Source: a virus (Duplodnaviria > Heunggongvirae > Uroviricota > Caudoviricetes). From it: a stretch of DNA of 11,813 bases. This document shows, in pieces, positions 1 to 11,813 of the stretch. The stretch covers positions 1-11,813 of the IMG/VR virus record IMGVR_UViG_2869947659_000003; one strand, 5' to 3'. The position numbers and the translations under genes are program-made. The number at the start of each line of letters is the position of its first letter. The first letter of the stretch is position 1. The notes below the pieces were generated by a model that was given only the letters and a program-made list of their open reading frames with translations, was not told where the DNA came from and made no database searches.

Positions 1-819
1 TTAAGCAGCCATCTGATGATATTTTTCCCTGAAGGCTGCCGGGGAGATATTCCCCAGACGAGAGTGACGACGCTGACGATTGTAGAAAATCTCAATGTAT
101 TCCCGTATTACTGAGATGGCTTCATCCCGGTTATTAAAACGATAGTGGCTCAGGCTCTCATTTTTCAGCGTTCCCCAGAAGCTTTCCATCGGAGCGTTGT
201 CGTAACAGTGACCTTTACGCGACATTGATGTTTTCAGACCAGACTGCTCCTGTATGACCCGGTAATCGTATGCGCAGTACTGTGAACCTCGATCAGAGTG
301 GTGGATTAGCCCGGCAGGTGGGCGCTGGCTCCTGAGCGCCATAAACAGGGCTTTACCTGTCAGCTCTTTTGTCATGCGCTCTCCCATGGCGTAGCCGACA
401 ATTTCGCACGTATAAACATCTTTGATGCCAGCGAGGTACAACCATCCCTCCTGTGTGGCAACATACGTCAGGTCCGCCACCCAGACCTGATTTGGTGCTG
501 TAGGAGCGAACGTCTGGTTCAGCAGATTTGGCGCAACTGGCAGATTGTGGTTCGGGTTCGTAGTCGCTCTGAACTTGCGTTTCTGCTTACAGCGTAGCCT
601 TAGCTCCTTACGAAGACGTGCCAGTCGGTCACGACCAACGATGATGCCATTCTCTGCCAGCTCCGTCTGGAGCCGCCGGGTTCCATATGTTTCGCGAGTG
701 CGGATATGTGCCACCTTAATCTCCAGTTTTAGCCGCTCATCACTTTGTTTTCTGTCTGAGGGTTCATGCTGTACCCAGTTGTAATAACCGCTCCTGGATA
801 CACCAAATACCTGACACAT
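1..819 (-). CDS. IS3-family transposase OrfB (DDE/integrase catalytic core), probably made as an OrfAB fusion by -1 frameshift
   Basis: 272-aa ORF with rve-like motifs (HSDRGSQYCAYDY, KGHCYDNAPMESFWGTLK, FYNRQRRHSRLGNISP). Stop codon sits at window positions 1-3. The ATG at 819 is probably not the biological start. Confidence 0.9.
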   Translation of the reverse strand: MCQVFGVSRSGYYNWVQHEPSDRKQSDERLKLEIKVAHIRTRETYGTRRLQTELAENGIIVGRDRLARLRKELRLRCKQKRKFRATTNPNHNLPVAPNLLNQTFAPTAPNQVWVADLTYVATQEGWLYLAGIKDVYTCEIVGYAMGERMTKELTGKALFMALRSQRPPAGLIHHSDRGSQYCAYDYRVIQEQSGLKTSMSRKGHCYDNAPMESFWGTLKNESLSHYRFNNRDEAISVIREYIEIFYNRQRRHSRLGNISPAAFREKYHQMAA

Positions 820-854
820 CGCTTCAATGGGAAATTGTTGTCGCCATTGTTCGA

Positions 855-1157
855 TTAACGCGTATTTTTCAGCGACTCCTGTGCAAAATACGCTGTTGCT
901 TTTTTTAATATATCTCGCTCAAGGCGAGCTTCATTTAACGCCTTACGCAGTTGCAGAATTTCAGATTCCAGTTCAGCCACCGTGCGGGAACCAGGAGTAC
1001 CGAGCCCTTTTCTGGCGGCGGTAACCCATTGTCCTAAAGTGCCTTCAGGAAGGGATAATCGGGAAGCGCCTTCACTGATCGAAAGTTGATTTTCAAGAAC
1101 CGTTCTGACAGCTTCGGCTTTGAACTCTTTAGAGTAACGTTGGTTTTTTCTGCTCAT
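855..1157 (-). CDS. IS3-family transposase OrfA (helix-turn-helix DNA-binding subunit)
   Basis: 100-aa ORF directly upstream of OrfB; N-terminal HTH-like region and C-terminal leucine-zipper-like segment (LESEILQLRKALNEARLERDILKKATAYFA) typical of IS3 OrfA. Confidence 0.85.
   Translation of the reverse strand: MSRKNQRYSKEFKAEAVRTVLENQLSISEGASRLSLPEGTLGQWVTAARKGLGTPGSRTVAELESEILQLRKALNEARLERDILKKATAYFAQESLKNTR
897..908 (-). other. Putative programmed -1 ribosomal frameshift site (A-rich slippery run) near the 3' end of orfA
   Basis: Minus-strand mRNA reads GAT ATA TTA AAA AAA GCA at the codons for ILKKA; the IS3 family typically uses an A AAA AAG-type heptamer here. Not experimentally supported. 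Confidence 0.5.
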
Positions 1158-1256
1158 TATTAGCTCCTTCTGATGCCATTCTATTTCAGGAAGGAGTGTC
1201 CGTTAAACTCAGGCTACCTCAGTTCGCCGCTGGCGAATTTCGAAAATATCAACCAG

Positions 1257-1538
1257 TTACCGCCGTAACCGCTCCGGCTTCTTCCAGTGGTACGTAATTT
1301 TTGCTTTTTCCCTGTACGTCTGCACGCGGCGACGGTAGGCCAGCATTTCAAGAACGCGGATCCGTATGTCGCGCATATCAACATCATTAAGCTGGATACC
1401 ATCACGGCGCATCACCTCAGCAACAACACGCACATAATTTTCAGCGGTCACGCTGTCCGGCTGTGTGGCCTGTTCGTCATGCTGCTGGCTGATTCCGGTA
1501 ACGCGGCGGATTAATCCCAGTAGTTCGGCTTCTGTCAT
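1257..1538 (-). CDS. Hypothetical protein, 93 aa
   Basis: ORF with a G-rich Shine-Dalgarno (GGGGG, 4 nt before the ATG). No recognisable family. Stop codon lies 36 bp from the IS end, so the gene appears intact. Confidence 0.55.
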   Translation of the reverse strand: MTEAELLGLIRRVTGISQQHDEQATQPDSVTAENYVRVVAEVMRRDGIQLNDVDMRDIRIRVLEMLAYRRRVQTYREKAKITYHWKKPERLRR

Positions 1539-1564
1539 TGTGCCCCCATCGCTCTGATAGTCTG

Positions 1565-1640
1565 GTGTCGTCGGGTCCTTCCTGGAATTATGGCCCGTTA
1601 CGGGGCGGCGACCTCGCGGTTTTTCGCTATTTATGAGCTT
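1565..1640 (+). other. Lambda-type cos site, copy 1 (cosQ-like ACGGGTCC-type segment plus cosN; 12-nt cohesive-end sequence GGGCGGCGACCT at 1603..1614)
   Basis: Sequence CGGGTCCTTCCTGG...GTTACGGGGCGGCGACCTCGCGGTTTTTCGCTATTTATGAGC closely matches the lambda genome termini as I recall them (right end ...ACGGGTCCTTTCCGG...GTTACG, left end GGGCGGCGACCTCGCGGGTTTTCGCTATTTATGAAAA). Confidence 0.8.
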
Positions 1641-1649
1641 TTTTAGAGG

Positions 1650-1800
1650 GAGGTTGTTGTTTAATTGTTTGTCATATCCATTTGATAACTAAGTAAAAAT
1701 AAAGAGCAATACAACAACCTGATAGTGTTTTTTTGATGCTAAAAATAAAAAAATGCTAATTGAATCAAATAGTTTTAAAAAAATACGTGGTTGTTGTATT
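1650..1800. repeat. AT-rich region with three GTTGTTGT / ACAACAAC repeats on the cosB side of cos copy 1
   Basis: GGTTGTTGTTT at about 1652, ACAACAACC at about 1710 and GGTTGTTGTAT at about 1790, seen directly. Possible terminase-small-subunit or IHF-type binding elements. Confidence 0.35.
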
Positions 1801-1831
1801 GCGTATTTGATGGCGTAACAGAAAGTGATTT

Positions 1832-2272
1832 TTAACTTTGCTGTTCTGTAACGACTGATTGTTCCATGCTGGCACGGCAAACGCTTACGGCATGACGCCA
1901 CCCAGCCAGAAAGCCGGCCATTTTATTTCGCGCTTTGCTCACTTCTTCCGGTGAGTAGCCGTAAATCTGTAAACCTTCATCAAATCTATGTTCTGTTTCT
2001 TCACTGGAGTACTCGTCACGCTCAGATGAAAGCAGCCTGGCAACCATAATTTTTTCCAGCGCACTGGTTTCTACGTGATATCCAATGGCCTCAAGATGGC
2101 TTTTACCTGAAGACCAAAGCAATGTATGCCCGATGTGATAACCGCCGGACTTTCCGCGATCCGCATTAAGATACGGCATCCCTTGTTTGGTCCATGCGCG
2201 AATAGTGGTTCTGTTTACCTTGAAATGTTCAGCTATTTCCTGCTGACTTACAAAACAAGCCTTATTAATCAT
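1832..2272 (-). CDS. Nu1-like terminase small subunit homologue (N-terminal winged-helix cos-binding domain); candidate packaging-redirection protein
   Basis: N-terminus VSQQEIAEHFKVNRTTIRAWTKQGMPYLNADRGKSGG aligns with lambda Nu1 VNKKQLADIFGASIRTIQNWQEQGMPVLRGGGKG. Only 146 aa versus 181 aa for Nu1, with a divergent C-terminus. RBS GAGGT precedes the ATG; the gene sits about 90 bp downstream of cos copy 2, as in lambda. Confidence 0.8.
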   Translation of the reverse strand: MINKACFVSQQEIAEHFKVNRTTIRAWTKQGMPYLNADRGKSGGYHIGHTLLWSSGKSHLEAIGYHVETSALEKIMVARLLSSERDEYSSEETEHRFDEGLQIYGYSPEEVSKARNKMAGFLAGWRHAVSVCRASMEQSVVTEQQS

Positions 2273-2339
2273 AATGTTACCTCAATTGACTGATTAAATG
2301 TTAATCAAGTGGTGGTGGTGTCACCTTCACGGAAAAACG

Positions 2340-2400
2340 TCATAAATAGCGAAAACCCGCGAGGTCGCCGCCCCGTAACGGCTCCATATGCCGGAAAGGA
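2340..2400 (-). other. Lambda-type cos site, copy 2 (cosQ-cosN; cohesive-end sequence reverse-complemented at 2362..2373), correctly oriented for the Nu1-like gene
   Basis: Minus strand reads ACGGGTCCTTTCCGGCATATGGAGCCGTTACG GGGCGGCGACCT CGCGGGTTTTCGCTATTTATGACG, near-identical to lambda cosQ/cosN. Confidence 0.85.
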
Positions 2401-2405
2401 CCCGT

Positions 2406-2430
2406 AAAAAAAAGCCGGATTTCTCCGGCC
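2406..2430 (-). terminator. Rho-independent terminator downstream of the capsid-like operon
   Basis: Stem GCCGGA / TCCGGC with 4-nt loop, followed on the minus strand by eight U residues. Confidence 0.7.
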
Positions 2431-2435
2431 TTGTC

Positions 2436-2849
2436 TCAGATGGTTTTCAGTATGCGATCGATGTCGCCGTCATCGCCCTGGTTTCTGCCATCGTATGCCA
2501 TGCCAGCTGATACGGCTTGCGGGCTGTGCATGTCCATAAAGTTTTCAAAGGCTGCGGTAAGCTCTGGTGCAACCTTTGGGCGCTCCTGCTCTATGGTCAT
2601 GTTCAGGATTTCACGAGCATTATCGACGCTAATACATGGCACGTTTGCCATTGCACGTAACAGCGGCTGATAGTCTTTATGCTCATGAAGCGCCATAATC
2701 GCATCAGCGCGCGGCTTGTCCTGCTCTTCCAGTTTGTTTAGTTGATATACGGCCTCATAGGTTGATAAACCTCTGTCAGCCATTGCCCGCGCTTCGGCTT
2801 TAAATTTACTCGCCAGCGGTAGCGTCATGATGCTTTCATTCGTTGCCAT
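2436..2849 (-). CDS. Hypothetical protein, 137 aa (last gene of the capsid-like operon)
   Basis: ORF with AGGGGGA Shine-Dalgarno, 12 nt downstream of the gpD-like gene. No recognisable family. Confidence 0.6.
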   Translation of the reverse strand: MATNESIMTLPLASKFKAEARAMADRGLSTYEAVYQLNKLEEQDKPRADAIMALHEHKDYQPLLRAMANVPCISVDNAREILNMTIEQERPKVAPELTAAFENFMDMHSPQAVSAGMAYDGRNQGDDGDIDRILKTI

Positions 2850-2861
2850 CGTTCCCCCTGC

Positions 2862-3197
2862 TTATCGGGCCAGCGGCTGAACGGATACGCCGGAACCCGC
2901 AAAGGCGGCGCATTTTTTCGCATCGGTGTCGACGCTCTCAGGCCAGTTAACGGCGGCAATATTGAATATCCCCGTCTTGTAACACTGTGCTGATTTCTGC
3001 TTTGACGTGTCCACAGGGTACGAGGTCAGATAAACAGCCTTGCCAGATTCCTTACCATCCCACGGCTTAAACTCGCCATTGTCCGCCAGCATCAGCGGGG
3101 TAAATTCCTGAATAACGCCAGCATCAGCGGCAAAATGTACCAGCGTCGTGGCGACCTGCTGACTGCCTGCAAATAACTCAATGTATGGAGTGTCCAT
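2862..3197 (-). CDS. Lambda gpD-like head decoration protein homologue
   Basis: TPLMLADNGEFKPWDG...YKTGIFNIAAVNWPESVDTDAKKCAAFAGSGVSV aligns with lambda gpD TPLMLDTSSRKLVAWDG...[35 protein letters not shown] (from memory). GGGGGA Shine-Dalgarno. Confidence 0.75.
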   Translation of the reverse strand: MDTPYIELFAGSQQVATTLVHFAADAGVIQEFTPLMLADNGEFKPWDGKESGKAVYLTSYPVDTSKQKSAQCYKTGIFNIAAVNWPESVDTDAKKCAAFAGSGVSVQPLAR

Positions 3198-3208
3198 AGA
3201 ATCCCCCG

Positions 3209-4264
3209 TTAACCAATTTTGACGGTAACAAATTTGCGAATATCTGCCGGAACCGGCTGCGGTGCGCTGTGCGTCTGCACGTACTCAATCGCCGGATCGC
3301 CGTCCTCAATCCAGTTTTTCGGGTAAAACATGTTTTGCGTTGCGCCTGTTCTTACTGCGTCCTGATCCATAATCGCACCATAGGCCACCAGCCCTTTATT
3401 GTTGGTGTTGCCCAGAACCAGCAAATCAGGCTCAAGGAAATATTTTTCTGTGCCGTCGCTGTCAGTGTATTTGCCGGAATAGACGATAAGGGCAATATCG
3501 CCCAGATAGCCTTTAAAGCTCACCACTTCGCCCAGGTTTTTACAGGCCAGCTCTGCGGCGGACTCTGAACCACGGGAAAGATCGTACAGCTCACGGAATT
3601 TTTTAAAGCTGCGTAACGTTCGCCATACCTCAGCGCCCATAATCATGACGTTTGCGGGGCAACCAGCCTGATCGGCGTATAGTTCGATATCATAGATTGG
3701 ATCGTGGGTTTCTTTGTCCTGCTCTGACCATTTTTTCCCGTCGGCCTGCTCTATGATGTTTTTTTCCGGTATCTTCCAGTCGATTTCATAGCGCTCTATG
3801 CCTTCGCCCTCAATGATGTTTTTTCCGGTCGTTACCGCATTTACCGCCAGCCATTCCACGCGCGCTTTAATGGCGTTTATCTGGCGGCGCATGTTGCCAG
3901 TAATCAGGCGCATACGGCGATAGGTAGGGTCGTTAAGCTGTGCCGGATCTTCTCCAGCCATGCGCATGATGGTTTTCGTTGGATCGATTTCGTGCTTTGG
4001 CTTCATGTAGCCAGGTTTAATCGTGCTGGTTTCGTACCCTTTATCGCGCTGAACCTGGCTACCCACCATAGGCGAACAAAACGCCGACATGGTGACTTCT
4101 TCAATGTCCAGGGTATCCAGCATGATGTTTTGCGTGCTGAATGTCGCCACGTTCGGGAAAAACAGCGTGGTAAACAGCGGACTGAATTTAAATTCCGCAA
4201 TATCCCCGCGATTCAGGTACGCAAAAAGCTGGTTAGTGTTAAGTACCATTGCTTTTACTGTCAT
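3209..4264 (-). CDS. Lambda gpE-like major capsid protein homologue
   Basis: Conserved blocks along the whole 351 aa shared with lambda gpE: EFKFSPLF, KPGYMKPKHE, DPTYRRMRLI, WSEQDKETHDP, WRTLRSFK, RGSESAAE, SFKGYLGDIALIVYSGKY, LVLGNT, FYPKNWIEDGDPA, QSAP. Start codon overlaps the stop of the upstream 68-aa ORF (TAATG). Confidence 0.9.
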   Translation of the reverse strand: MTVKAMVLNTNQLFAYLNRGDIAEFKFSPLFTTLFFPNVATFSTQNIMLDTLDIEEVTMSAFCSPMVGSQVQRDKGYETSTIKPGYMKPKHEIDPTKTIMRMAGEDPAQLNDPTYRRMRLITGNMRRQINAIKARVEWLAVNAVTTGKNIIEGEGIERYEIDWKIPEKNIIEQADGKKWSEQDKETHDPIYDIELYADQAGCPANVMIMGAEVWRTLRSFKKFRELYDLSRGSESAAELACKNLGEVVSFKGYLGDIALIVYSGKYTDSDGTEKYFLEPDLLVLGNTNNKGLVAYGAIMDQDAVRTGATQNMFYPKNWIEDGDPAIEYVQTHSAPQPVPADIRKFVTVKIG

Positions 4265-4470
4265 TATTCCCCCCCGTGAACCTGATTCATACCCAGCGCC
4301 GCGCGTAAATAGGCGCGTACCTGCCAGCCTGTTGACGGCTCAACCATCGCCAGCGGATCAAGTCCTGCCGCAATGCCTGCTTTTACGTTCTGCTGGTGGC
4401 GTTCCTTGAGCGCCTTCACGATGTCGGGGCTTATGTACACCGAAACACCGCCTTTTTTCTCTTCAGCCAT
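4264..4470 (-). CDS. Hypothetical protein, 68 aa (first gene of the capsid-like operon)
   Basis: AGAGGA Shine-Dalgarno upstream; translationally coupled to the gpE-like gene. No recognisable family. Confidence 0.5.
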   Translation of the reverse strand: MAEEKKGGVSVYISPDIVKALKERHQQNVKAGIAAGLDPLAMVEPSTGWQVRAYLRAALGMNQVHGGE

Positions 4471-4498
4471 AGTAAGAAATTCCTCTTTGACTTAAAAA

Positions 4499-4555
4499 AT
4501 CATAACTGGATGTTCATCCAGTTATGATTATAATCATGATCGCATTTTGTGCAAT
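4499..4555 (-). promoter_or_regulatory. Sigma70-like promoter for the capsid-like operon overlapped by a 30-bp perfect palindrome (candidate operator)
   Basis: Minus strand -35 TTGCAC (4549..4554), 16-bp spacer, -10 TATAAT (4527..4532). Palindrome ATCATAACTGGATG tt CATCCAGTTATGAT at 4499..4528 covers the predicted transcription start. Confidence 0.5.
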
Positions 4556-4633
4556 GATATTGAGTTGCGTTGCAAATTATGAAATGATTATCCCGATCAT
4601 GTGTGTCAGTGCACCAAAAAACCTCATATGCAA

Positions 4634-4672
4634 AAGCCCGATAACCCACCTCTGACCTTATCGGGCTTTTTT
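4634..4672 (+). terminator. Hairpin terminator (10-bp stem AGCCCGATAA / TTATCGGGCT, 13-nt loop, T-run)
   Basis: Seen directly; followed by TTTTTTAT on the plus strand. A weaker U-run follows on the minus strand, so it may act in both directions. Confidence 0.5.
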
Positions 4673-4770
4673 ATCTGCCTGCAAAGATGTTGAACAAAAA
4701 TTAACCACAACCATCATCTTTTTTGCATCAAAACAATTAAAAACAATAAATTACGCTCATGATGATGATG

Positions 4771-4847
4771 ACGATAAAATCACAAAAATGCGCTTTTTTC
4801 CGCGCCTCCCGCCCCGTGTTCAGGCCCACCCCGCCAGGAGGACCCGT
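4771..4847 (-). other. Degenerate third cos-like element (diverged duplicate of cos copy 2)
   Basis: Plus-strand 4771..4869 aligns with 2341..2430 over about 100 bp (…CCGCCCCGT…GGACCCGTAAAAAAGCCGGATTGCTCCGGC). The cohesive-end core is not intact (GGGCGGGAGG instead of GGGCGGCGACCT). Confidence 0.55.
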
Positions 4848-4869
4848 AAAAAAGCCGGATTGCTCCGGC
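4848..4869 (-). terminator. Rho-independent terminator downstream of ssb
   Basis: Stem GCCGGA / TCCGGC with loop, followed on the minus strand by six U residues; near-identical to the terminator at 2406..2430. Confidence 0.7.
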
Positions 4870-4885
4870 TTCTGTCACTCGTCGC

Positions 4886-5308
4886 TTAAAACGGTATGTT
4901 ATCCCCGTACGGATCATCATTCCCCGCCTGTTGTTTTGCCCTGTTCAGCGCGTCAGTAGCCTGGCCCTGTTGACCTTTTTTGCCGCCCAGTCGCGCCGTT
5001 CGCGCACTGATTACACTGTCTGCGATAACCTGCCAGCCCTGCCGCGTTTCCCCGTTCTGTCCGGTCCACTGGCTGACCTGCATCGTGCCGGATACGCTGG
5101 CAACGTCGCCTTTTTGATGTTTAGCCAGGAAGTCGGCCTGCTTACCAAATGCGATGACCGATAGCCATAACGTCGCCTGCCCATCCTGCGCCTGACTACA
5201 TGGCAACGATACCGCCATACGCGCCAGCGTCATCGGTGTGCCCTTGCTGGTCTGTTTTACCTGCGGGTCGTCCACCAGCCGCCCGTAAGCGGCTATCTGT
5301 GCTGTCAT
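4886..5308 (-). CDS. ssb: Single-stranded DNA-binding protein (SSB-like OB-fold protein with acidic C-terminal tail)
   Basis: OB-fold-like core (TLWLSVIAFGKQADFLAKHQKGDVASVSGTMQVSQWTGQNGETRQGWQVIADSV) resembling the E. coli SSB core, and a C-terminal tail ending DDPYGDNIPF (compare the SSB DDDIPF tip). Start overlaps the stop of the upstream ORF (ATGA). Confidence 0.7.
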   Translation of the reverse strand: MTAQIAAYGRLVDDPQVKQTSKGTPMTLARMAVSLPCSQAQDGQATLWLSVIAFGKQADFLAKHQKGDVASVSGTMQVSQWTGQNGETRQGWQVIADSVISARTARLGGKKGQQGQATDALNRAKQQAGNDDPYGDNIPF

Positions 5309-5562
5309 AATTCCACCTCTCCGGTTTTAACGTTGATGGTTGTTACCTGTTCCGCTTCGGCAATCTCCCGCTCTGTCAGCGTGGCAAAGTTTGCCGCTGC
5401 TGTGGTCATGAATGCGCTTATCAGGTCGGGATGTGCTTTCGCGTATCCTTCCCCCGTGTTGCGGTCGATGATTTTTATCGCCACTCTCAGCCAGTGCTCT
5501 GTAAGGTCAATGGCGCGGTTATGCTGCTTCTTCTGATTATTAAGTTTTCCTGATGTGCGCAT
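5305..5562 (-). CDS. Hypothetical protein, 85 aa, translationally coupled to ssb
   Basis: ORF with ATGA overlap to ssb. No recognisable family. Confidence 0.5.
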   Translation of the reverse strand: MRTSGKLNNQKKQHNRAIDLTEHWLRVAIKIIDRNTGEGYAKAHPDLISAFMTTAAANFATLTEREIAEAEQVTTINVKTGEVEL

Positions 5563-5610
5563 TTTTATTTTTACCCCCTCGTTTAAAAAGTTTTGAGTTG
5601 TGCCTCCCCT

Positions 5611-5837
5611 TGTCTACCTTATCTACCTTACTGGCTCTCATGCCAGTAATGGCGCGGCTTTCAGCGGGGTAGAGTGCTTTTATCCACTATCTACCCCGTA
5701 TCTACCTCCCTGTCTGATTCAGGTAAAATCAGGTAGAGAGGGTAGATAGTAGGTAGACAGTGAAAAAAGGCTGTCTACCTAAGTTAATATACTGAATTAA
5801 ATGTATTTTTCTTTACTCAGGTAGACAGGGTAGACAG
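5611..5837. repeat. Iteron array (candidate replication origin) with a DnaA-box-like site
   Basis: At least 11 copies of TCTACC / GGTAGA-containing 8-9-mers in both orientations (for example TGTCTACC 5611, TATCTACC 5620 and 5688, GGTAGAGAG 5732, GGTAGATAG 5741, GGTAGACAG 5752, 5820 and 5829, CTGTCTACC 5771). TTATCCACT at 5680..5688 is an 8/9 match to the DnaA box. Lies immediately 3' of the primase gene. Confidence 0.7.
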
Positions 5838-5850
5838 CCATTGCAAAAAA

Positions 5851-7599
5851 TTATAAAAACGCGTCGCAATCGTCTGTTGTTATTGCGTTAGTCTGCGTTA
5901 CTCCCTTAACTTTCCGCGTAATATATTCATGTCCGTAAACTTTCGCGGCTGGCTTCATAGCCTTGCCAAAGTCATTTACGTTTAGCGGTTTGCTCCTGCC
6001 TGCGTATGCCATAAACGCCAGATAGACGCGGTAAAGGCTGTTTCTGGTCGTGTACTTCACTGAATCGCCACCGCCACCCATCATCAGGCCGCGCGCTTCC
6101 TCCAGAAAATTCAGGAACTGGCAAAACTCAATAACCGGATCCGTCTGTTGCTTTATTGCCAGAGCTTCATCACCGTCACGCTGTTCCAGTAGTAAAGCCC
6201 GTGCCTTCTCAGGGTCGGTAAAGTTCGCCAGCAAGCGGCGGATAATGACAGGGATTTCAGCCGCGATCTTTTCCGGTAGCTCCCTGTCTTTTTCTGCCTC
6301 GCTTACGATATTGTCGAAGCGGAAAATAACCCGACGACGTGACACGCCTCCGGCCCGTTCGGTGAATATCATCGGGTTGTTATTGGTCGCCAGCACCACC
6401 GCCCTGATTACCGTAGTGAAACGCTTTTCATATTTCGGGTTGATTTCCACGGGGTCGCCGCCCGTGATTTTCTTGATGCCCGTGCCTTCGCCTGTATATT
6501 TCGGCTGGTCTGCCAGGACGATAAGACGACTCCCGACAACCTGCGCACGCCCACCAGCATCATCAAGCGATGTCATTTCCGCGCTTACCGTGTTTTGTTT
6601 CCCCGCTAAAAGGCTGGCGATGTGGGTGAATGTACTTTTGCCGCTCCCGCCGTCTCCGGTGGCCTCAATAAACATCTGCCAGTCGTACCGGTTCGCCATA
6701 ATCATGTACAGCGCGGCACATATACGCATCATCTTGCGCTGGTCTTTTCCAGCTGCGTGATCAAGCCATTTATGAAAGTTTGGCGCGTTATCGCGGATGT
6801 TCTCCCCAGGTGCTGGTGGCGTGTACTCAATGCCGTTGTGCGTGGTGATCCAGTTCTCCGGCGTGTGCGGGGAAAATTCCCCCGTTTTCAGGTCAAGCGC
6901 ACCATTGGCGAACGGCAGCAAATCGCCGGACGGCTCCCCCATTGGTTCGGCAATAACTTTTAACGCTTCAACGGCGTTATTGATCACGCGTTTGCTGAAA
7001 GTGGCCCTGTGCTCTGAATAGATCGCCACCATTTCGCGGCTCAGCTCCATTGTGCTGATCGGACACCATACCCCGCCGCGCCATACGTGAACGATTTCAC
7101 TTTCCGGATGCACACAAACGCCATCAAAGCGCTCGGCAAGCAGCTGCGCGCGCTCACTGTCTGCCATTTGTGCCAGTTGCGTATTTTTCTGCTCCGGCAT
7201 GGTAAGCCCTGCGGCAATATTTTCACGCTCAGCATTCAGATAGCGCCGCCAGTTTTCACACTTCTGGACGTGCATTCCTTCGGGGTAAAAATTTGCGTCC
7301 TGAATATCTGCCGCCGCCAGCTTCTGACCAATCTTTTTGGTCTCCACTAAATCCAGTTCTCCGGCCTGGTACAGCCTTACGCGCTTTTTCCCATCCGGAA
7401 CAATTTTCAGCGCATCAAGTTCGGCAAGCTGATTTGGCCCAAGCCACACAGGCGGCACATTATCGCCGGATGCGGGGCCATCCTGCTCCTGCCATTGTTT
7501 CGCGTGCGACCAGGCATCACTACCCGCGAAAATAATTACCTCTGTGTCTTTGTGTTTTATTCCGCGTGGCTGTTTTTTTACGTTCGGTGCCAGTTTCAT
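5851..7599 (-). CDS. P4-family primase/helicase (alpha-like replication protein; D5-type SF3 helicase with Walker A)
   Basis: 582-aa ORF with Walker A EATGDGGSGKST and a downstream Walker B-like LIVLAD segment; overall resemblance to the P4 alpha / phage-plasmid primase C-terminal region. Coupled by ATGA overlap to the upstream small ORF. Confidence 0.88.
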   Translation of the reverse strand: MKLAPNVKKQPRGIKHKDTEVIIFAGSDAWSHAKQWQEQDGPASGDNVPPVWLGPNQLAELDALKIVPDGKKRVRLYQAGELDLVETKKIGQKLAAADIQDANFYPEGMHVQKCENWRRYLNAERENIAAGLTMPEQKNTQLAQMADSERAQLLAERFDGVCVHPESEIVHVWRGGVWCPISTMELSREMVAIYSEHRATFSKRVINNAVEALKVIAEPMGEPSGDLLPFANGALDLKTGEFSPHTPENWITTHNGIEYTPPAPGENIRDNAPNFHKWLDHAAGKDQRKMMRICAALYMIMANRYDWQMFIEATGDGGSGKSTFTHIASLLAGKQNTVSAEMTSLDDAGGRAQVVGSRLIVLADQPKYTGEGTGIKKITGGDPVEINPKYEKRFTTVIRAVVLATNNNPMIFTERAGGVSRRRVIFRFDNIVSEAEKDRELPEKIAAEIPVIIRRLLANFTDPEKARALLLEQRDGDEALAIKQQTDPVIEFCQFLNFLEEARGLMMGGGGDSVKYTTRNSLYRVYLAFMAYAGRSKPLNVNDFGKAMKPAAKVYGHEYITRKVKGVTQTNAITTDDCDAFL

Positions 7600-7895
7600 T
7601 TTTTACCCCTGAATACGTTAAGCATCTTTTTTATTTCCTGAATATTGGCGCGTGCTTTCTCCCTGCTGGTTGGTTTACTGCGGGGCGCTGCCTGTACCAG
7701 AGAAAAATCACGCCGAAACTGATAAACAGGCATCACGCAATCATATTCGTAGCCTTCACGACGGTAGGTGATGCGCCGTTCTGCCACGCCTTTAATCGTT
7801 ACCATGCCGCCATATTTATCGCGGTAAATATCGCCGTTCATAAATTCAGGACGAGCGGGGCCGCTGGCAGTAACGCCAGAATTTTTATTTTTCAT
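7596..7895 (-). CDS. Hypothetical protein, 99 aa, translationally coupled to the primase
   Basis: ORF; stop overlaps the primase ATG. No recognisable family. Confidence 0.6.
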   Translation of the reverse strand: MKNKNSGVTASGPARPEFMNGDIYRDKYGGMVTIKGVAERRITYRREGYEYDCVMPVYQFRRDFSLVQAAPRSKPTSREKARANIQEIKKMLNVFRGKK

Positions 7896-7900
7896 GTTTT

Positions 7901-8131
7901 TTATTCTCCGGTGTGCTGCGCTTTATTATTCTCGTGAATTGCCATCACTGTATTTAATTCATTAATAACAGGCGTTAATAGCGTACGCACGGCAGAAAAC
8001 ATCATTGAATCAGATTCATCGCCACTTTCCGGCACATCAATTAACTTAAGTAGTAATGCGTCCATTTCCTTTGCGCGGATTAATGCGTTTTCAGAGTGGA
8101 TTAATACTTCAAAAGGGATTTTATGCATCAC
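7901..8131 (-). CDS. Hypothetical protein, 76 aa
   Basis: ORF in the same operon orientation. No recognisable family. Confidence 0.5.
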   Translation of the reverse strand: MMHKIPFEVLIHSENALIRAKEMDALLLKLIDVPESGDESDSMMFSAVRTLLTPVINELNTVMAIHENNKAQHTGE

Positions 8132-8405
8132 AAATTTTCTCCCTTATTCTTTTAATGTCCTCATTAAGGATGTCTGTAACTTTTATCAGCGAGTTTTTGG
8201 CAATTATTTTTATTGTTTTAAGTTTTCTTTTGTCGTGCTCCGACTGTGATTTTCTCTCCATAATCTCCACCATGTGGGTAACATCAACGAGCGCACGTAT
8301 CAGTATTTGCATTGCTTCTTCTGCTGCGTCCGGTGTGGTTTTATTGCACATGTACCCCTCCGCATTTTTTTTCGTTAGAAATAAGCGTTCTTCTTTCCTG
8401 TTCAT
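8121..8405 (-). CDS. Hypothetical protein, up to 94 aa (start uncertain; internal ATGs at 8351 and 8309)
   Basis: ORF overlaps the upstream ORF (8341..8571) by 65 nt in a different frame, so the true start may be an internal Met. Confidence 0.4.
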   Translation of the reverse strand: MNRKEERLFLTKKNAEGYMCNKTTPDAAEEAMQILIRALVDVTHMVEIMERKSQSEHDKRKLKTIKIIAKNSLIKVTDILNEDIKRIREKICDA

Positions 8406-8571
8406 CGCTCAGGAATACGCAGACCTCACCGCTAAGGCGTTTAAGTAAGCCGATGATTGCCCCTGATTCGCTGTCGGTCATCATGCCAGGGTAATCCTCT
8501 GCCAGTGCGCAAATAACTTCGATTTGGTGGGCGCGTTCTGCTGCCTGTTGTAGTGTGATTTCCTGACTCAT
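8341..8571 (-). CDS. Hypothetical protein, 76 aa
   Basis: ORF whose ATG overlaps the stop of the upstream 66-aa ORF (ATGA at 8568..8571). Confidence 0.5.
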   Translation of the reverse strand: MSQEITLQQAAERAHQIEVICALAEDYPGMMTDSESGAIIGLLKRLSGEVCVFLSDEQERRTLISNEKKCGGVHVQ

Positions 8572-8768
8572 AAGCCTACCCCCTGACGAATACGGGCGGC
8601 GAATACCATCACGCAGCCATCAGGAGATTGCTGGCGTGCTTCCTGTTCGCTGGTGGCCACGATGTGAATCACGCGCGGTTGTGCGGTGCTCAGGGCGATA
8701 AAACGCCAGATGTATTTATTCAGGTTGTACGAGTCCCGCCCTTGCGGGTGTATGGTATAATTTCTCAT
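8568..8768 (-). CDS. Hypothetical small protein, 66 aa (possibly Icd-like); first gene of the replication operon
   Basis: Sub-ORF MRNYTIHPQGRDSYNLNKYIWRFIALSTAQPRVIHIVATSEQEARQQSPDGCVMVFAARIRQGVGL, taken from the C-terminal end of the 469-aa track ORF, with a GAGG RBS. Its WRF...PRV..I.A.SE.EAR...FAAR pattern resembles what I recall of Icd-like proteins in P4-like prophages; tentative. Confidence 0.45.
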   Translation of the reverse strand: MRNYTIHPQGRDSYNLNKYIWRFIALSTAQPRVIHIVATSEQEARQQSPDGCVMVFAARIRQGVGL

Positions 8769-8859
8769 AGCTGCCTCGATAATCTTGCTATCGTTGGTGG
8801 TTAGAAGCCCCGTTACTGCTCCTACAGTGCGGGGTTTCGTCGTTTCTGCACCTTGCATT

Positions 8860-8945
8860 AACAAGGTGTAAGTAACTTTATTTATAGGTGGCTTACATGT
8901 CAATGCTTTTATGTAAGACTTTTTATGTGTATATTGTCTTACACT
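8860..8945. promoter_or_regulatory. Divergent promoter/operator region with four TGTAAG / CTTACA half-sites
   Basis: TGTAAG at 8867 and 8912, CTTACA at 8892 and 8938; CTTACAT-N12-ATGTAAG forms an inverted repeat. Sits between the plus-strand RHH-like gene and the minus-strand replication operon. Confidence 0.45.
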
Positions 8946-8964
8946 TTCATTGAGAGGATTACAG

Positions 8965-9270
8965 ATGGCTACAGGTTCAAAAAACGCAAAATCACAATCA
9001 CTGACAGCTCGGATCCCGCATGATGTTATTGAAGGCATGGAATCCGTAAAACTGGACGGTGAAAGCAACGCCGGATTCATAGTAACCGCCATGCGCGGTG
9101 AAATCGCCCGCCGCCAGGCAGAAGGAAGCAGAGAAAACCCCCTGATTTCTTCGCTCGATGCACTGGCGCAGGTGGAAAAACTCGGAATCAAAGCCGCCGA
9201 GGAGATCGGGCAGCTCGTCACTGTCGCACGTGAAGAACTCCAGCGCCGCAAGACCAAAGAACCAGAGTAA
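8965..9270 (+). CDS. Probable ribbon-helix-helix (CopG/Arc-like) DNA-binding protein, about 101 aa
   Basis: Strong RBS AGAGGA 6 nt before the ATG at 8965 (the track ORF begins at TTG 8950). N-terminus LTARIPHDVIEGMESVKLDGESNAGFIVTAMRGEIARR fits a beta-strand/helix/helix RHH pattern. Fold assignment is by pattern, not by search. Confidence 0.55.
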   Translation: MATGSKNAKSQSLTARIPHDVIEGMESVKLDGESNAGFIVTAMRGEIARRQAEGSRENPLISSLDALAQVEKLGIKAAEEIGQLVTVAREELQRRKTKEPE

Positions 9271-9327
9271 TCACCATCAGCGCCGTGGTGTAAGGTATTA
9301 CGGCGCATTGCTATGCAGGACAACACA

Positions 9328-9501
9328 ATGACCGATAAAGAATTGACCAAAACATTATCACCGGCACGGAAAAGACGGCGCAGAAAGATAGAGCATGAAT
9401 CAGAAAGATTCGCGCCATGTGCTTTTGCCCTTGAGCAATTCCTTAAAGAGTACAGGGAAAAGCGCTCATTGCAGGTATGGCAACGAACTGAACCAGACTG
9501 A
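9328..9501 (+). CDS. Small basic protein, about 57 aa (the track ORF begins at the upstream ATG 9313)
   Basis: AGGA 7 nt upstream of ATG 9328; N-terminal KRRRRK cluster; followed by a plus-strand terminator. Confidence 0.45.
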   Translation: MTDKELTKTLSPARKRRRRKIEHESERFAPCAFALEQFLKEYREKRSLQVWQRTEPD

Positions 9502-9577
9502 TTGCATTGCCCACCAGCCGCAAATGTGGCATTGTTGGCAATGCTCATGCGTTGGGGATAACGTGTAGCTTGTGTCG

Positions 9578-9609
9578 AGGGGCCACCGTAGCGGGTGGCC
9601 TTTGTTTTG
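9578..9609 (+). terminator. Rho-independent terminator ending the plus-strand cassette
   Basis: Stem GGCCACC / GGTGGCC with loop GTAGCG, followed by TTTGTTTTG. Confidence 0.6.
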
Positions 9610-9612
9610 CCC

Positions 9613-9977
9613 GTTATTCGGCAATTGTGGCGCTTCTCCACATGGTTGATATAATCCCACTGCTCAGATTCATTTTTTGCGCAGTAGGTTAATTGTTCAC
9701 AAAGGCGCTCCGGCAACGGGGCGCTTTTTGTTTTTATTAGTTTGTAGAAACCTGACTCAGAGATAATGCTCATATTCTGATTGCCGTCAGGGGTGTAAGT
9801 TAAATTTACTCCCTTTTTATCATCAAACATCTGCAACACTCTGGCGTTAACAATATTGGTTTCACTCCCGCCAGTAAGGCCGGAAATAACCGGAATACTT
9901 TCGGCAAAATTTTGCAGATTCTGTTTTTCAGGACGAACGAAGCCCCGCCCTTGTTCGGGAGAATATCCAGTATTCAT
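9613..9977 (-). pseudogene. Possible 5' remnant of a gene downstream of alpA (N-terminal ~120 codons of the 469-aa track ORF); extent uncertain
   Basis: The N-terminal part (MNTGYSPEQGRGFVRPEKQ...EQWDYINHVEKRHNC) has protein-like composition. The rest of the 469-aa frame runs antisense through the plus-strand genes and is Ser/Cys/Arg-rich, so it is probably not a real protein. No in-frame stop exists until 8568. Confidence 0.3.
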
Positions 9978-10029
9978 GGTTAGATCTCTGTATTAGTGGA
10001 TGGGTGGCGGCTGTGTGCCGCCAGCCTGA

Positions 10030-10218
10030 TTAGTGAACTGCCTCGCAGCTGTCCTTCCATGCCAGAACTTCGGATAAAGACCAGCCAACGGAACGACCGC
10101 CCAGCTTACGCCGTGATGGGAATTGTCCGGCTTTTTCCAGGCGGTACCGACATGAGCGGCTCAGGCCTGTAAGTTGCTGACATTCTTTTTCACGTATAAA
10201 GCGATCTGTGCTTAACAC
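10030..10218 (-). CDS. alpA: AlpA/Vis-like winged-helix regulator (prophage excisionase / transcriptional activator family)
   Basis: 62-aa protein resembling CP4-57 AlpA and P4 Vis-type proteins in size, composition and position next to a P4-type integrase. Start is GTG at 10218 with AAGGGGGA upstream. Confidence 0.8.
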   Translation of the reverse strand: MLSTDRFIREKECQQLTGLSRSCRYRLEKAGQFPSRRKLGGRSVGWSLSEVLAWKDSCEAVH

Positions 10219-10254
10219 AATTCCCCCTTTGTTGTTTCTTAAAGAGTCATTGGG

Positions 10255-10300
10255 TGGATTATTGGGTTGGGTTGTGTCGGATTGTGTCAGGGTGTTTGTG
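10255..10300. repeat. Tandem roughly 10-bp direct repeats (GGTTGTGTC GGATTGTGTC AGGGTGTTTG) upstream of alpA
   Basis: Seen directly, in the alpA 5' region. Confidence 0.4.
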
Positions 10301-10498
10301 GAATGGCAAACACTGGCGGCGGTCGTTTTACAGAAGCATGGGGAATGAGAATAAAAACTCTTTTAATTCATTATGATGCAAAGGCATAAAATTTTACTTT
10401 TACGCCTTTTTTACATATTTTTAAGAGTGATTCGCCAGTGTATAAAAAAACAGTACACCTATAAAAATCAAATGGTTATTACGATGGCTGATTTTTAA

Positions 10499-10560
10499 CC
10501 CGTTGTTCCATTTTGTTCCTTGTTGTTCGTCGTTGTGTCTCGTTGTTTCACGTTGTCCGC
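10499..10560. repeat. Six tandem roughly 10-bp direct repeats (consensus tCGTTGTTyC) just 3' of the integrase gene
   Basis: CCGTTGTTCC, ATTTTGTTCC, TTGTTGTTCG, TCGTTGTGTC, TCGTTGTTTC, ACGTTGTCCG in helical phase. Candidate binding array for Int arm-binding domain, AlpA/Vis or IHF-type proteins. Confidence 0.4.
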
Positions 10561-10583
10561 ATCCTGAAAAATCGCAAAAAAAA

Positions 10584-11813
10584 TTATATTTCTCTGGCTA
10601 TTGGCAATGTGGTTACGTTTTCATGTGTTCCCGCCAGTATCCCTAACCGCTCCGTCCACATATCCAGCGCGTCACGTTTCGCATCCAGATAACGGGAATG
10701 GTTATAGACTCGTTGCATCCCTGGCATCTGATGACCTGTAAGCTGCTCCACGACGTGAGGATCCACGCCTAAATCGTTCAGCATCGTTGTAAAGGTGCGC
10801 CGGATGTCATGCAGTGACCAGTGAGGGTGTTTTAGCCTCCTGTGCGCTAATCTACCGTACTGCGACACGCTTGTTTCCTGTTTCACTTCCCCCAGCAATA
10901 AGCCCGTGTGCCTGTTCTGCTCCACCAGCTGCGTGACGAACGGTAGTATTGCTTCCGGTATGGGCCGGAATATTGCCACCTTCGTTTTGCTGTGTTCTTT
11001 CGGCACGGTCCAGAGCATTTCGGTAAAATCCCACTCGCTGATCTCCGATAACCTCAGTTCTACCGTCCGGCATCCGAAAACAATCAGGAGGCGGATTAGT
11101 GCGACGTAGTAAGGGGAAAATATTTTTTTGTCCAGTGCCTGCAATAATTCGCCAAGTTCTTTGGTGCTTAAGACACGCTCGCTTATATCCGGTTTTTTCC
11201 TAACGTCCGCCACACTCATATCATCAAGAACGTTGCTGATTGCATAGCGCCGCCTCCGGCAGAACTTAAGCGCCTGTTTGCACGTCTGTAGCAAGAATCC
11301 GGCAGTAACAGGCGTTCGCTTTGCCACCTGGTCAAAACAGGCCAGCCAGTGCCGTAGCTCGCATTTATCCAGCGGCATAGCACCAATGTGCTGTATTACG
11401 TGATTATTAAGGCGCTTTTTCAGGGCGGCATAATCCACGCGGTTTTCCTTTGCGTACGACTCAAGCCAGTAGGTGAGCGCATCGCCAACCGTTACCGGCT
11501 TTAACGCTTCCTGTACGGTGTAATTAAGCTCATGACGTGGATTTTTCCCCTCTGCCAGCCATGCGCGACACTGGGCGGCTTTTTCCCTGGCTGATTTCAG
11601 GCTCAGATCAGGATAATTTCCCAGCTTAATGCGTTCCGGTGGTGCCCCCCTTCCCGTTCCGGCCCTGTAAGTGAAATACCAGGTTAAAAGGCCACTGGTT
11701 GAATGCCTGACGCTCAGGTTTCCACCGTCATTAAGAAAGGCTGTTTTTTGGGCGGGTGTGCCGTTGATTTTCCTCAGCTGTGTATCGCTCAGTTTGTTAA
11801 GTGCTCTGCTCAT
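10584..11813 (-). CDS. int: P4-type tyrosine integrase (site-specific recombinase)
   Basis: 409-aa ORF with N-terminal arm-binding-like region and C-terminal catalytic motifs (HDIRRT, GHQ, RVYNHSRYL with the catalytic Tyr). The ATG is at the window edge; alignment with the P4 Int N-terminus suggests this is close to the true start. Confidence 0.93.
   Translation of the reverse strand: MSRALNKLSDTQLRKINGTPAQKTAFLNDGGNLSVRHSTSGLLTWYFTYRAGTGRGAPPERIKLGNYPDLSLKSAREKAAQCRAWLAEGKNPRHELNYTVQEALKPVTVGDALTYWLESYAKENRVDYAALKKRLNNHVIQHIGAMPLDKCELRHWLACFDQVAKRTPVTAGFLLQTCKQALKFCRRRRYAISNVLDDMSVADVRKKPDISERVLSTKELGELLQALDKKIFSPYYVALIRLLIVFGCRTVELRLSEISEWDFTEMLWTVPKEHSKTKVAIFRPIPEAILPFVTQLVEQNRHTGLLLGEVKQETSVSQYGRLAHRRLKHPHWSLHDIRRTFTTMLNDLGVDPHVVEQLTGHQMPGMQRVYNHSRYLDAKRDALDMWTERLGILAGTHENVTTLPIAREI

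Follow-up and report, generated by a model that had tools for sequence, protein, structure and literature searches.

Head-to-head lambda-type cos sites with different cosB types flank rpp in a phage-inducible chromosomal island of the EcCICFT073 family

The stretch of DNA analysed here, referred to below as the window, comprises positions 1 to 11,813 of the IMG/VR virus record IMGVR_UViG_2869947659_000003 (Caudoviricetes) and is 11,813 nucleotides long. It is a phage-inducible chromosomal island (PICI) of the EcCICFT073 family. The typical island layout was recognized in the window, with a terminal tyrosine integrase, an AlpA regulator, a primase, a mostly unidirectional gene order (nearly all genes are on the minus strand) and a size in the ~10-20 kb range of such islands. 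Genes coding for SSB, gpE-like capsid and gpD-like decoration proteins were also found. The island of CFT073 matches the window with ~95 % identity (94.9 %) over 80 % of the length, and the homology spans positions 1222-11813. The present analysis deals with two lambda-type cos sites in this island, which are located head-to-head on both sides of rpp (redirecting phage packaging), a gene encoding a protein of 146 amino acids. The coordinates of the features are listed in Table 1.

The lambda 12-nt cohesive-end sequence, GGGCGGCGACCT, is present in two exact copies, at 1603-1614 on the plus strand (copy 1) and at 2362-2373 on the minus strand (copy 2). By arithmetic, ~0.001 matches to an exact 12-mer are expected by chance in 2 x 11.8 kb; a shuffle control was applied only to the search allowing ≤2 mismatches, not to the exact 12-mer. 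The cosN sites are 759 bp apart from start to start, with 747 bp between them, and both cosB sides point inward to the 146-aa open reading frame (ORF). Each cosN lies inside one arm of a 72-nt inverted repeat, the arms being identical at 61 of 72 positions and sharing a perfect 25-nt core (1595-1619). Both copies display the features of a lambda-type cos: a 12-nt cosN, a cosQ (GGGTCCT) located 30 nt upstream of it (1573-1579 on the plus strand and 2397-2403 on the minus strand) and an I2-like segment downstream, the lambda-like CGCGG(G/T)TTTTCGCTATTTATGA being present on the cosB side of each. In a comparison with the annotated cos of lambda(DE3) from -45 to +37, 57 of 82 positions were identical in copy 1 and 62 of 82 in copy 2. 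Further downstream than +37, neither copy is related to lambda cosB (26-30 %). The cosQ and cosN of copy 2 are identical to those of lambda, and its cosB is unrelated (49/165). An initial annotation of this DNA had reported two lambda-type cos sites, head-to-head and ~760 bp apart, and their coordinates and orientation were reproduced. The canonical lambda order that it had assigned to copy 2, cosQ-cosN-cosB-terS-like gene, was verified as well. A third cosN-like 12-mer, GGGCGGCGACCC (6452-6463, minus strand, 11/12 identical), was rejected as a cos. It is located in the primase gene, without cosQ or I2 context, is also kept in CFT073 (L001 7796-7807) and is most likely a coding coincidence.

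Table 1 Features of the window, with positions counted from its first nucleotide
Feature	Position	Strand	Remark
93-aa last island gene, PHROG 1561	1257..1538	-	Flanks cos copy 1 on its outer side; conserved in CFT073 and all relatives
Inverted-repeat arm 1, core of copy 1 (cosQ, cosN, I2-like CGCGGTTTTTCGCTATTTATGA)	1572..1643	+	Position of EcCICFT073 cos2
747-bp cassette cosB2 - rpp - cosB1 between the cosN sites	1615..2361		Either orientation among relatives
Phage-type cosB of copy 1, three R-like elements and AT-rich spacer	1615..1815	+	
rpp, 146 aa	1832..2272	-	94 % identical to RppA (c1503) of CFT073
Rpp-type cosB of copy 2	2273..2361	-	Nearly identical to CFT073 cos1 cosB
Inverted-repeat arm 2, core of copy 2 (cosN, cosQ)	2333..2404	-	Corresponds to EcCICFT073 cos1
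Intrinsic-terminator-like hairpin after the 137-aa gene	2411..2432	-	T-run passes straight into cosQ of copy 2
137-aa conserved island gene, PHROG 1999	2436..2849	-	Flanks cos copy 2 on its outer side; "head-tail connector" according to some RefSeq records
D5-type primase	5851-7599	-	
AlpA regulator (alpA)	10030-10218	-	
Tyrosine integrase	10584-11813	-	One island end

The gene between the two sites had been annotated as Nu1-like. This holds for its N-terminus, since a match to the TerS PHROG was obtained for residues 6-46 (the N-terminal 41 amino acids). The match is confined to this part and leaves out the C-terminal TerL-binding part of TerS; an identity as terS was not upheld, the gene being rpp. 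Its winged helix-turn-helix region is identical to that of RppA, residues R21/T22 included, and the protein matches the crystallised RppC (PDB 6HLK/6HN7; E=7e-32). Two scans of GTDB contigs for Rpp relatives, the query being a single protein in one and an alignment in the other, gave only one distant match, in Dokdonella. Copy 2 is composed as a cos of an Rpp-encoding PICI, with a phage-like cosQ and cosN and a non-phage cosB directly upstream of rpp. The rpp-proximal cos alone was analysed by Murialdo and Feiss (2022), who proposed a single R3-PICI at bp 48-65 from cosN (PMC9026076). In the window this proposed R3-PICI, AGGTGACACCACCACCAC, is found at 2309-2326 on the minus strand, at bp 48-65 from cosN, with the ACCACCACC motif at 2311-2319. 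Repeated R elements are absent from copy 2, which is N15-like in its single R3, as was proposed (PMC9026076). The cosB next to terS in a related island (L007, see below) has GGTGGTGGTGG, the reverse complement of ACCACCACC, at a similar distance from cosN.

Copy 1 has a different cosB. Three R-like elements were found here, in direct-inverted-direct order overall: AGGTTGTTGT at 1651-1660, which is the canonical R3 offset (48-65 nt from cosN), ACAACAACCT at 1711-1720 (inverted) and GGTTGTTGT at 1789-1797 (direct). The cosB segment of copy 1 is present in 241 E. coli genomes at 60-80 % identity. In strain O111:H- 11128 a copy-1-like segment is located directly upstream of a prophage terS-terL-W-portal operon. 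Copy 1 aligns with this prophage cos from cosQ to just before the terS start, and the three R elements are invariant. Judged by its sequence, copy 1 is a complete lambdoid-phage cos, with cosQ, cosN, an I2-like segment and three R elements at canonical positions. The two sites are not equivalent, the cosB being Rpp-specific in copy 2 and of a genuine phage class in copy 1. Copy 1 resembles the cos sites of lambdoid phages (lambda/phi80, 21 and N15 classes; Feiss laboratory; PMC9026076) in cosQ, cosN and spacing, in its three R-like elements and in its end-to-end homology with a prophage cos. Unlike in these phages, the phage-type cosB of the island is followed by the convergent 3' end of rpp instead of terS, and a second cos faces it.

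Two cos sites have been described before in EcCICFT073; cloned in plasmids, each of them allows transfer by lambda and phi80 (Fillol-Salom 2018 ISME J PMC6092414; Fillol-Salom 2019 Mol Cell PMC6739421). Deletion of cos1 from EcCICFT073 strongly lowers transfer and deletion of cos2 raises it, while transfer is abolished by the double deletion (PMC6092414, PMC6739421). The residual transfer of the cos1 deletion mutant depends on cos2 (PMC6092414). RppA was found to bind the helper TerS; of the two cosB, that of cos1 alone is recognised by the complex and stimulated by RppA, and cos1 is the essential site (PMC6092414, PMC6739421). A phage cosB was reported not to be identifiable in either site (PMC6092414, PMC6739421). 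Helper induction, replication, packaging and interference have been demonstrated for the CFT073 orthologue only (PMC6092414, PMC6739421). The Fig S1A sequences place cos1 directly upstream of rppA and cos2 beyond the rppA 3' end, so that copy 2 of the window corresponds to cos1 and copy 1 to cos2. Indeed, two inverted cosN sites also flank rppA (c1503) in CFT073. The pair in the window is the already published cos1/cos2 pair of an Rpp-encoding PICI, and as such it is real and known in kind. The suggestion of the initial annotation that the pair permits packaging to start in either direction agrees with the experimentally established function of both sites of the CFT073 orthologue (PMC6092414).

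The window and EcCICFT073 are alike in gene order, in Rpp (94 % identity), in the near-identical cos1-type cosB and in the inverted cosN pair around rpp at the same positions. They differ in the cosB class of the second site, which is GGTTGTTGT in the window and CATGTCCGG in CFT073. The two sequences are unrelated exactly between cosN+~18 and the rpp stop codon. In the searchable literature no mention was found of the inverted orientation of cos1/cos2 or of any inversion of them. Three points were not found there: that copy 1 is a phage cos, that the segment inverts, and that rpp-less islands with two cos sites exist.

Comparison of relatives revealed at least four phage cosB classes in the slot of the second site, each matching a real (pro)phage cos. 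The GGTTGTTGT class of the window has its match in the O111:H- 11128 prophage. The CATGTCCGG class of CFT073 is matched by a prophage of O157:H7 NE1127 (88.8 %) and one of strain 1070/13 (98.5 %), the GTCAGATCC class of the island of O157:H7 FRIK2533 by an ST131 prophage, and the CATGTCGG class of the E105 and PM4-5 islands by the annotated R3-I1-R2-R1 of phage 21. The slot beside the outer cosQ-cosN is thus modular, and the phage cosB modules in it are intact and interchangeable. TerS proteins of phages with different cosB classes differ in the N-terminal DNA-binding domain, and their C-terminal parts can be almost identical; between O111 and O157 phage TerS, the N-terminal DNA-binding domains are 17 % identical and the C-terminal parts 93 %. 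Among the IMG/VR contigs with Rpp-type islands, the second site is present and inverted in 18 of 18, with the CATGTCCGG class in 10 and the GGTTGTTGT class in 8.

The head-to-head layout was found in all two-cos relatives examined. In the terS-type islands (O157:H7 FRIK2533, E105, DA61218) Rpp is replaced by a 180-aa full-length TerS (PHROG 57, E=8e-53). These islands share the flanking genes and the two head-to-head cos sites with the window, and the cosB beside their terS is of one class with the copy-1 cosB of the window. They differ from the window in that this GTTGTTGT-class cosB forms the island's own site, not the second site. The terS loci of sister islands of this type are at L007 2050-2592, L009 1861-2403, L010 3267-3809 and L011 3266-3808, and the N-terminal domain of their TerS resembles that of the O111-prophage TerS (motif FDKWGV.PVER.GRE.FYDV). 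An island with a single cos also exists (L009). About 9 genomes carry islands with neither rpp nor terS, which have two phage-type cos sites of different classes, head-to-head. Remnants of the rpp 3' end, placed back-to-back, lie between the cos sites of these islands (L015 1859-2394, strain CEA601S; L012 ~2590-3136, strain GF4), and the cos classes of L015 and L012 are GGTTGTTGT and CATGTCCGG. L012 is the opposite isomer of L015, and its left cosN is degenerate.

The cassette between the two cosN sites was found in both orientations among relatives. Inverted Rpp-type cassettes were searched for with a synthetic junction, in which the left flank of copy 1, cosQ and half of cosN were joined to the other half of cosN, the cosB and the start of rpp from copy 2. 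Fifteen complete genomes contain a match that covers 99 % of this junction. In one of these, WP4-S17-ESBL-08 (L006), the cosN sites enclose 727 bp that match the reverse complement of the CFT073 segment exactly, with 0 mismatches. The 350-394 nt left of the cassette are identical to CFT073, and rppA is on the strand opposite to its neighbours. In nine other genomes the same flanks, at 99.6 %, enclose the cassette in its usual orientation. Two further, independent inversions were found among terS-type islands located elsewhere in the chromosome, namely 2014C-4587 (yejO site) versus FRIK2533 (L010 versus L007) and PM4-5 versus E105, both at the mdtJ/tqsA site (L011 versus L008). In total there are three normal/inverted pairs in three island lineages, each compared between strains, and with these natural isomers the earlier suggestion that the segment is inversion-prone was borne out. 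Inverted isomers account for 15 of ~82 Rpp-type genomes, 0 of 18 IMG/VR contigs and 5 of ~380 terS-type genomes. Many matches to two other junction queries were rejected as evidence of inversion. Junction B gave 375 matches, but these are not inversions, because the cosB of terS-type islands is homologous to the copy-1 cosB of the window and the query fits their normal cos. With an O157-type junction query, 35 of 40 matches were normal window-type islands.

In the two terS-type inversions each arm retains its own spacer between cosQ and cosN; the exchange must therefore have taken place in the identical core of ~25-30 nt, to which cosN belongs. Since the spacer of the right arm is a converted one in L006, here the left junction alone can be placed in the core. 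A copy-1-type spacer is present in both arms of several islands. In strain Ch1 (L003 3965-3976 and 4725-4736) both cosN copies have the same rare G-to-T change (GGGCGTCGACCT), which points either to gene conversion between the arms or to an island adapted to a helper whose cosN is a variant. The arms of the inverted repeat thus evolve in concert.

A short segment bounded by inverted repeats and occurring in both orientations among natural isolates is reminiscent of Hin/Gin/Cin and fimS. Unlike these systems, the cassette lacks an adjacent gene for an invertase or Fim-type recombinase, its repeats are packaging sites, and its inversion alters no obvious promoter-gene junction. A dedicated recombinase was not found beside the segment, the neighbours being the 93-aa protein, rpp and the 137-aa head-related protein; the recombinases of the window are limited to an IS3 transposase and the island integrase, which lies 8 kb from the segment. 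A promoter scan of 1200-2900 performed no better than on shuffled sequence, and no cassette promoter could be proposed. The idea of the inversion as an expression switch for the 93-aa gene or rpp was dropped for this reason.

It is likely that the island joins an Rpp-redirected site to a site that mimics a helper cos, that the inverted orientation lets the two coexist, and that the arms occasionally recombine. Copy 2 with its Rpp-type cosB and rpp would form the island's own packaging module. Rpp would heterodimerise with the helper TerS, and the complex would bring the helper TerL to copy 2, with packaging leftward in window coordinates. This mechanism is inferred for the window from the CFT073 experiments, by way of the 94 % protein identity and the near-identical cosB. 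Copy 1 may serve helpers whose TerS recognises the GGTTGTTGT class, a specificity that belongs to prophages with another DNA-binding domain in their TerS. Such class-matched helpers could package the island directly, independent of Rpp and in the opposite, rightward direction. The island would then be a parasite with two strategies, redirection and cos mimicry.

Lambda-type termination works only if the terminase meets cosQ-cosN in one orientation, and an inverted cos is passed by an enzyme that set out from the other site. With two cos sites in direct orientation, the DNA between them would be deleted. The two cos sites of the island may be able to coexist because lambda-type termination depends on orientation: an inverted second cos would be passed over, and a direct one would lead to loss of the rpp segment. 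By this analogy the inverted orientation would be a condition for having two cos sites. Rare recombination in the short identical core would result in gene conversion of the arms and in inversion of the 0.75-kb cassette, the inversion leaving the two cos sites intact. Terminase breaks at cosN possibly stimulate the recombination that generates the inversions. Copying of the helper's cos, cosB included, is also the way in which P4, SaPIbov5 and 11capE are packaged; unlike these satellites, the island of the window pairs mimicry with an Rpp-redirected site of another specificity, in a fixed head-to-head arrangement. The helper-embedded satellite 11capE shares 258 bp with its helper 50icd (bioRxiv 10.1101/2022.07.18.500453).

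Several observations weigh against this explanation. For transfer by lambda and phi80, cos2 can be dispensed with, and more transfer is obtained when it is deleted, which makes it a net cost (PMC6092414). Matches to the copy-1 cosB were found in prophages only; a search of the INPHARED phage collection with copy 1 returned the common cos core only and no close cosB match. A class-matched prophage is present in ~3 of 35 island-bearing genomes versus roughly 5 % of all genomes, which is no clear enrichment, and there is no sign of co-adaptation of the island to a resident helper. The use of cos2-type sites by a class-matched TerS is a prediction made from sequence, and the orientation argument draws on lambda cos-duplication genetics. 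Furthermore, one event probably accounts for all 15 inverted RppA-type genomes, which are 100 % identical over 1.7 kb.

The net cost of cos2 with lambda and phi80 and the lack of enrichment of class-matched prophages are the reasons why another explanation, though unlikely, has to be reckoned with. Copy 1 could be a functionless by-product, a scar of recombination between island and helper at the shared cosQ-cosN, kept like copy 2 by gene conversion and tolerated as a site at which packaging does not terminate. One-cos islands such as L009 and degenerate cosN variants such as the left arm of L012 fit this idea, as does the improved lambda-mediated transfer of EcCICFT073 upon deletion of cos2. 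However, in each of four independent cosB classes the cosQ, the cosN, the spacing of the two and every R element are intact and agree with functional phage cos sites as far as the start of terS. The cloned cos2 of CFT073 is functional, and the residual transfer without cos1 depends on it. The rpp-less islands retain two phage-type cos sites, and a second site occurs in every one of the Rpp-type IMG/VR contigs. An artefact of assembly, or a junction of two mobile elements, both raised in the initial annotation, can practically be dismissed. All that speaks for either is that two cos sites at a distance of 0.76 kb look unusual. The arrangement is not an assembly artefact, because it recurs in CFT073, in 67 complete E. 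coli genomes (≥80 % coverage of window 1200-2900) and in 18 IMG/VR contigs, dozens of these genomes having been finished independently. A single island contains both sites, the genes on either outer side are conserved island genes, and in CFT073 both sites have been cloned and deleted experimentally.

It is very unlikely that the pair acts as an invertible switch driven by terminase, in which both cosN sites are cut and the identical cohesive ends re-anneal either way, or in which a break is repaired from the inverted copy. Such a switch would flip the direction of packaging relative to island and chromosome. At least 3 independent inversions, two terS-type exchanges confined to the ~25-30-nt core containing cosN, and a sequence geometry in which both cassette ends would bear the same 12-nt overhang can be brought forward for it. 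The exchange interval is, however, also the sole perfectly identical stretch, and rare homologous recombination explains the exchanges equally well. Homogenisation of the spacers and the shared G-to-T change in cosN point to gene conversion, which is not a product of cohesive-end rejoining alone. Moreover, inverted isomers are a minority in all sets counted, and terminase expression normally accompanies cell death. The sequence data do not separate terminase-driven inversion from homologous recombination, and the gene conversion favours the latter. A broader proposal is likewise very unlikely, namely that the cos pair is a modular, invertible cassette for packaging specificity, with the outer cosQ-cosN, common to all lambdoid helpers, as the points at which an island takes up the cosB of any helper class it encounters and with terminase cleavage driving an inversion that needs no dedicated recombinase. 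The four cosB classes and the rpp-less islands with two mimic sites fit this proposal. The combination of an Rpp-redirected site and a helper-mimic site with occasional recombination between the arms remains the preferred explanation.

Some observations concern the surroundings of the cos pair. The 137-aa protein on the outer side of copy 2 weakly matches head maturation proteases in their C-terminal part (PHROG 53, positions 495-567). The island that encodes it has been reported to make no small capsids. An IS3-family element at 1-~1221 (orfA 855-1157 and orfB 1-819, both on the minus strand) adjoins the island end, and its position is taken by phoQ-side chromosome in CFT073 and several relatives. 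A 469-aa ORF (8568-9977, minus strand) displays weak BRO/Ant-like matches at its N-terminus and a strongly phage-repressor-like C-terminus (PHROG 6196). It replaces a small-ORF cluster and an Icd-like gene of the CFT073 island and makes the regulatory module mosaic.

What the window adds is a new island with a second cos of a different phage specificity class, and its value is comparative. The comparative data offer a testable answer to the published question why these islands have two cos sites. The second site is, by its sequence, a faithful copy of the cos of another helper specificity class, not a divergent PICI cos, and therefore one island could exploit two classes of helpers by two mechanisms. 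For annotation, a head-to-head pair of lambda-type cos sites around a short Nu1-like gene can be taken as a mark of an Rpp- or TerS-type PICI and not of mis-assembly. If the explanation favoured here is true, the mosaic cosB slot would be explained, phage packaging sites would provide a natural case of hot spots for recombination and inversion, and a wider helper range would be predicted for islands that are common in uropathogenic and Shiga-toxigenic E. coli.

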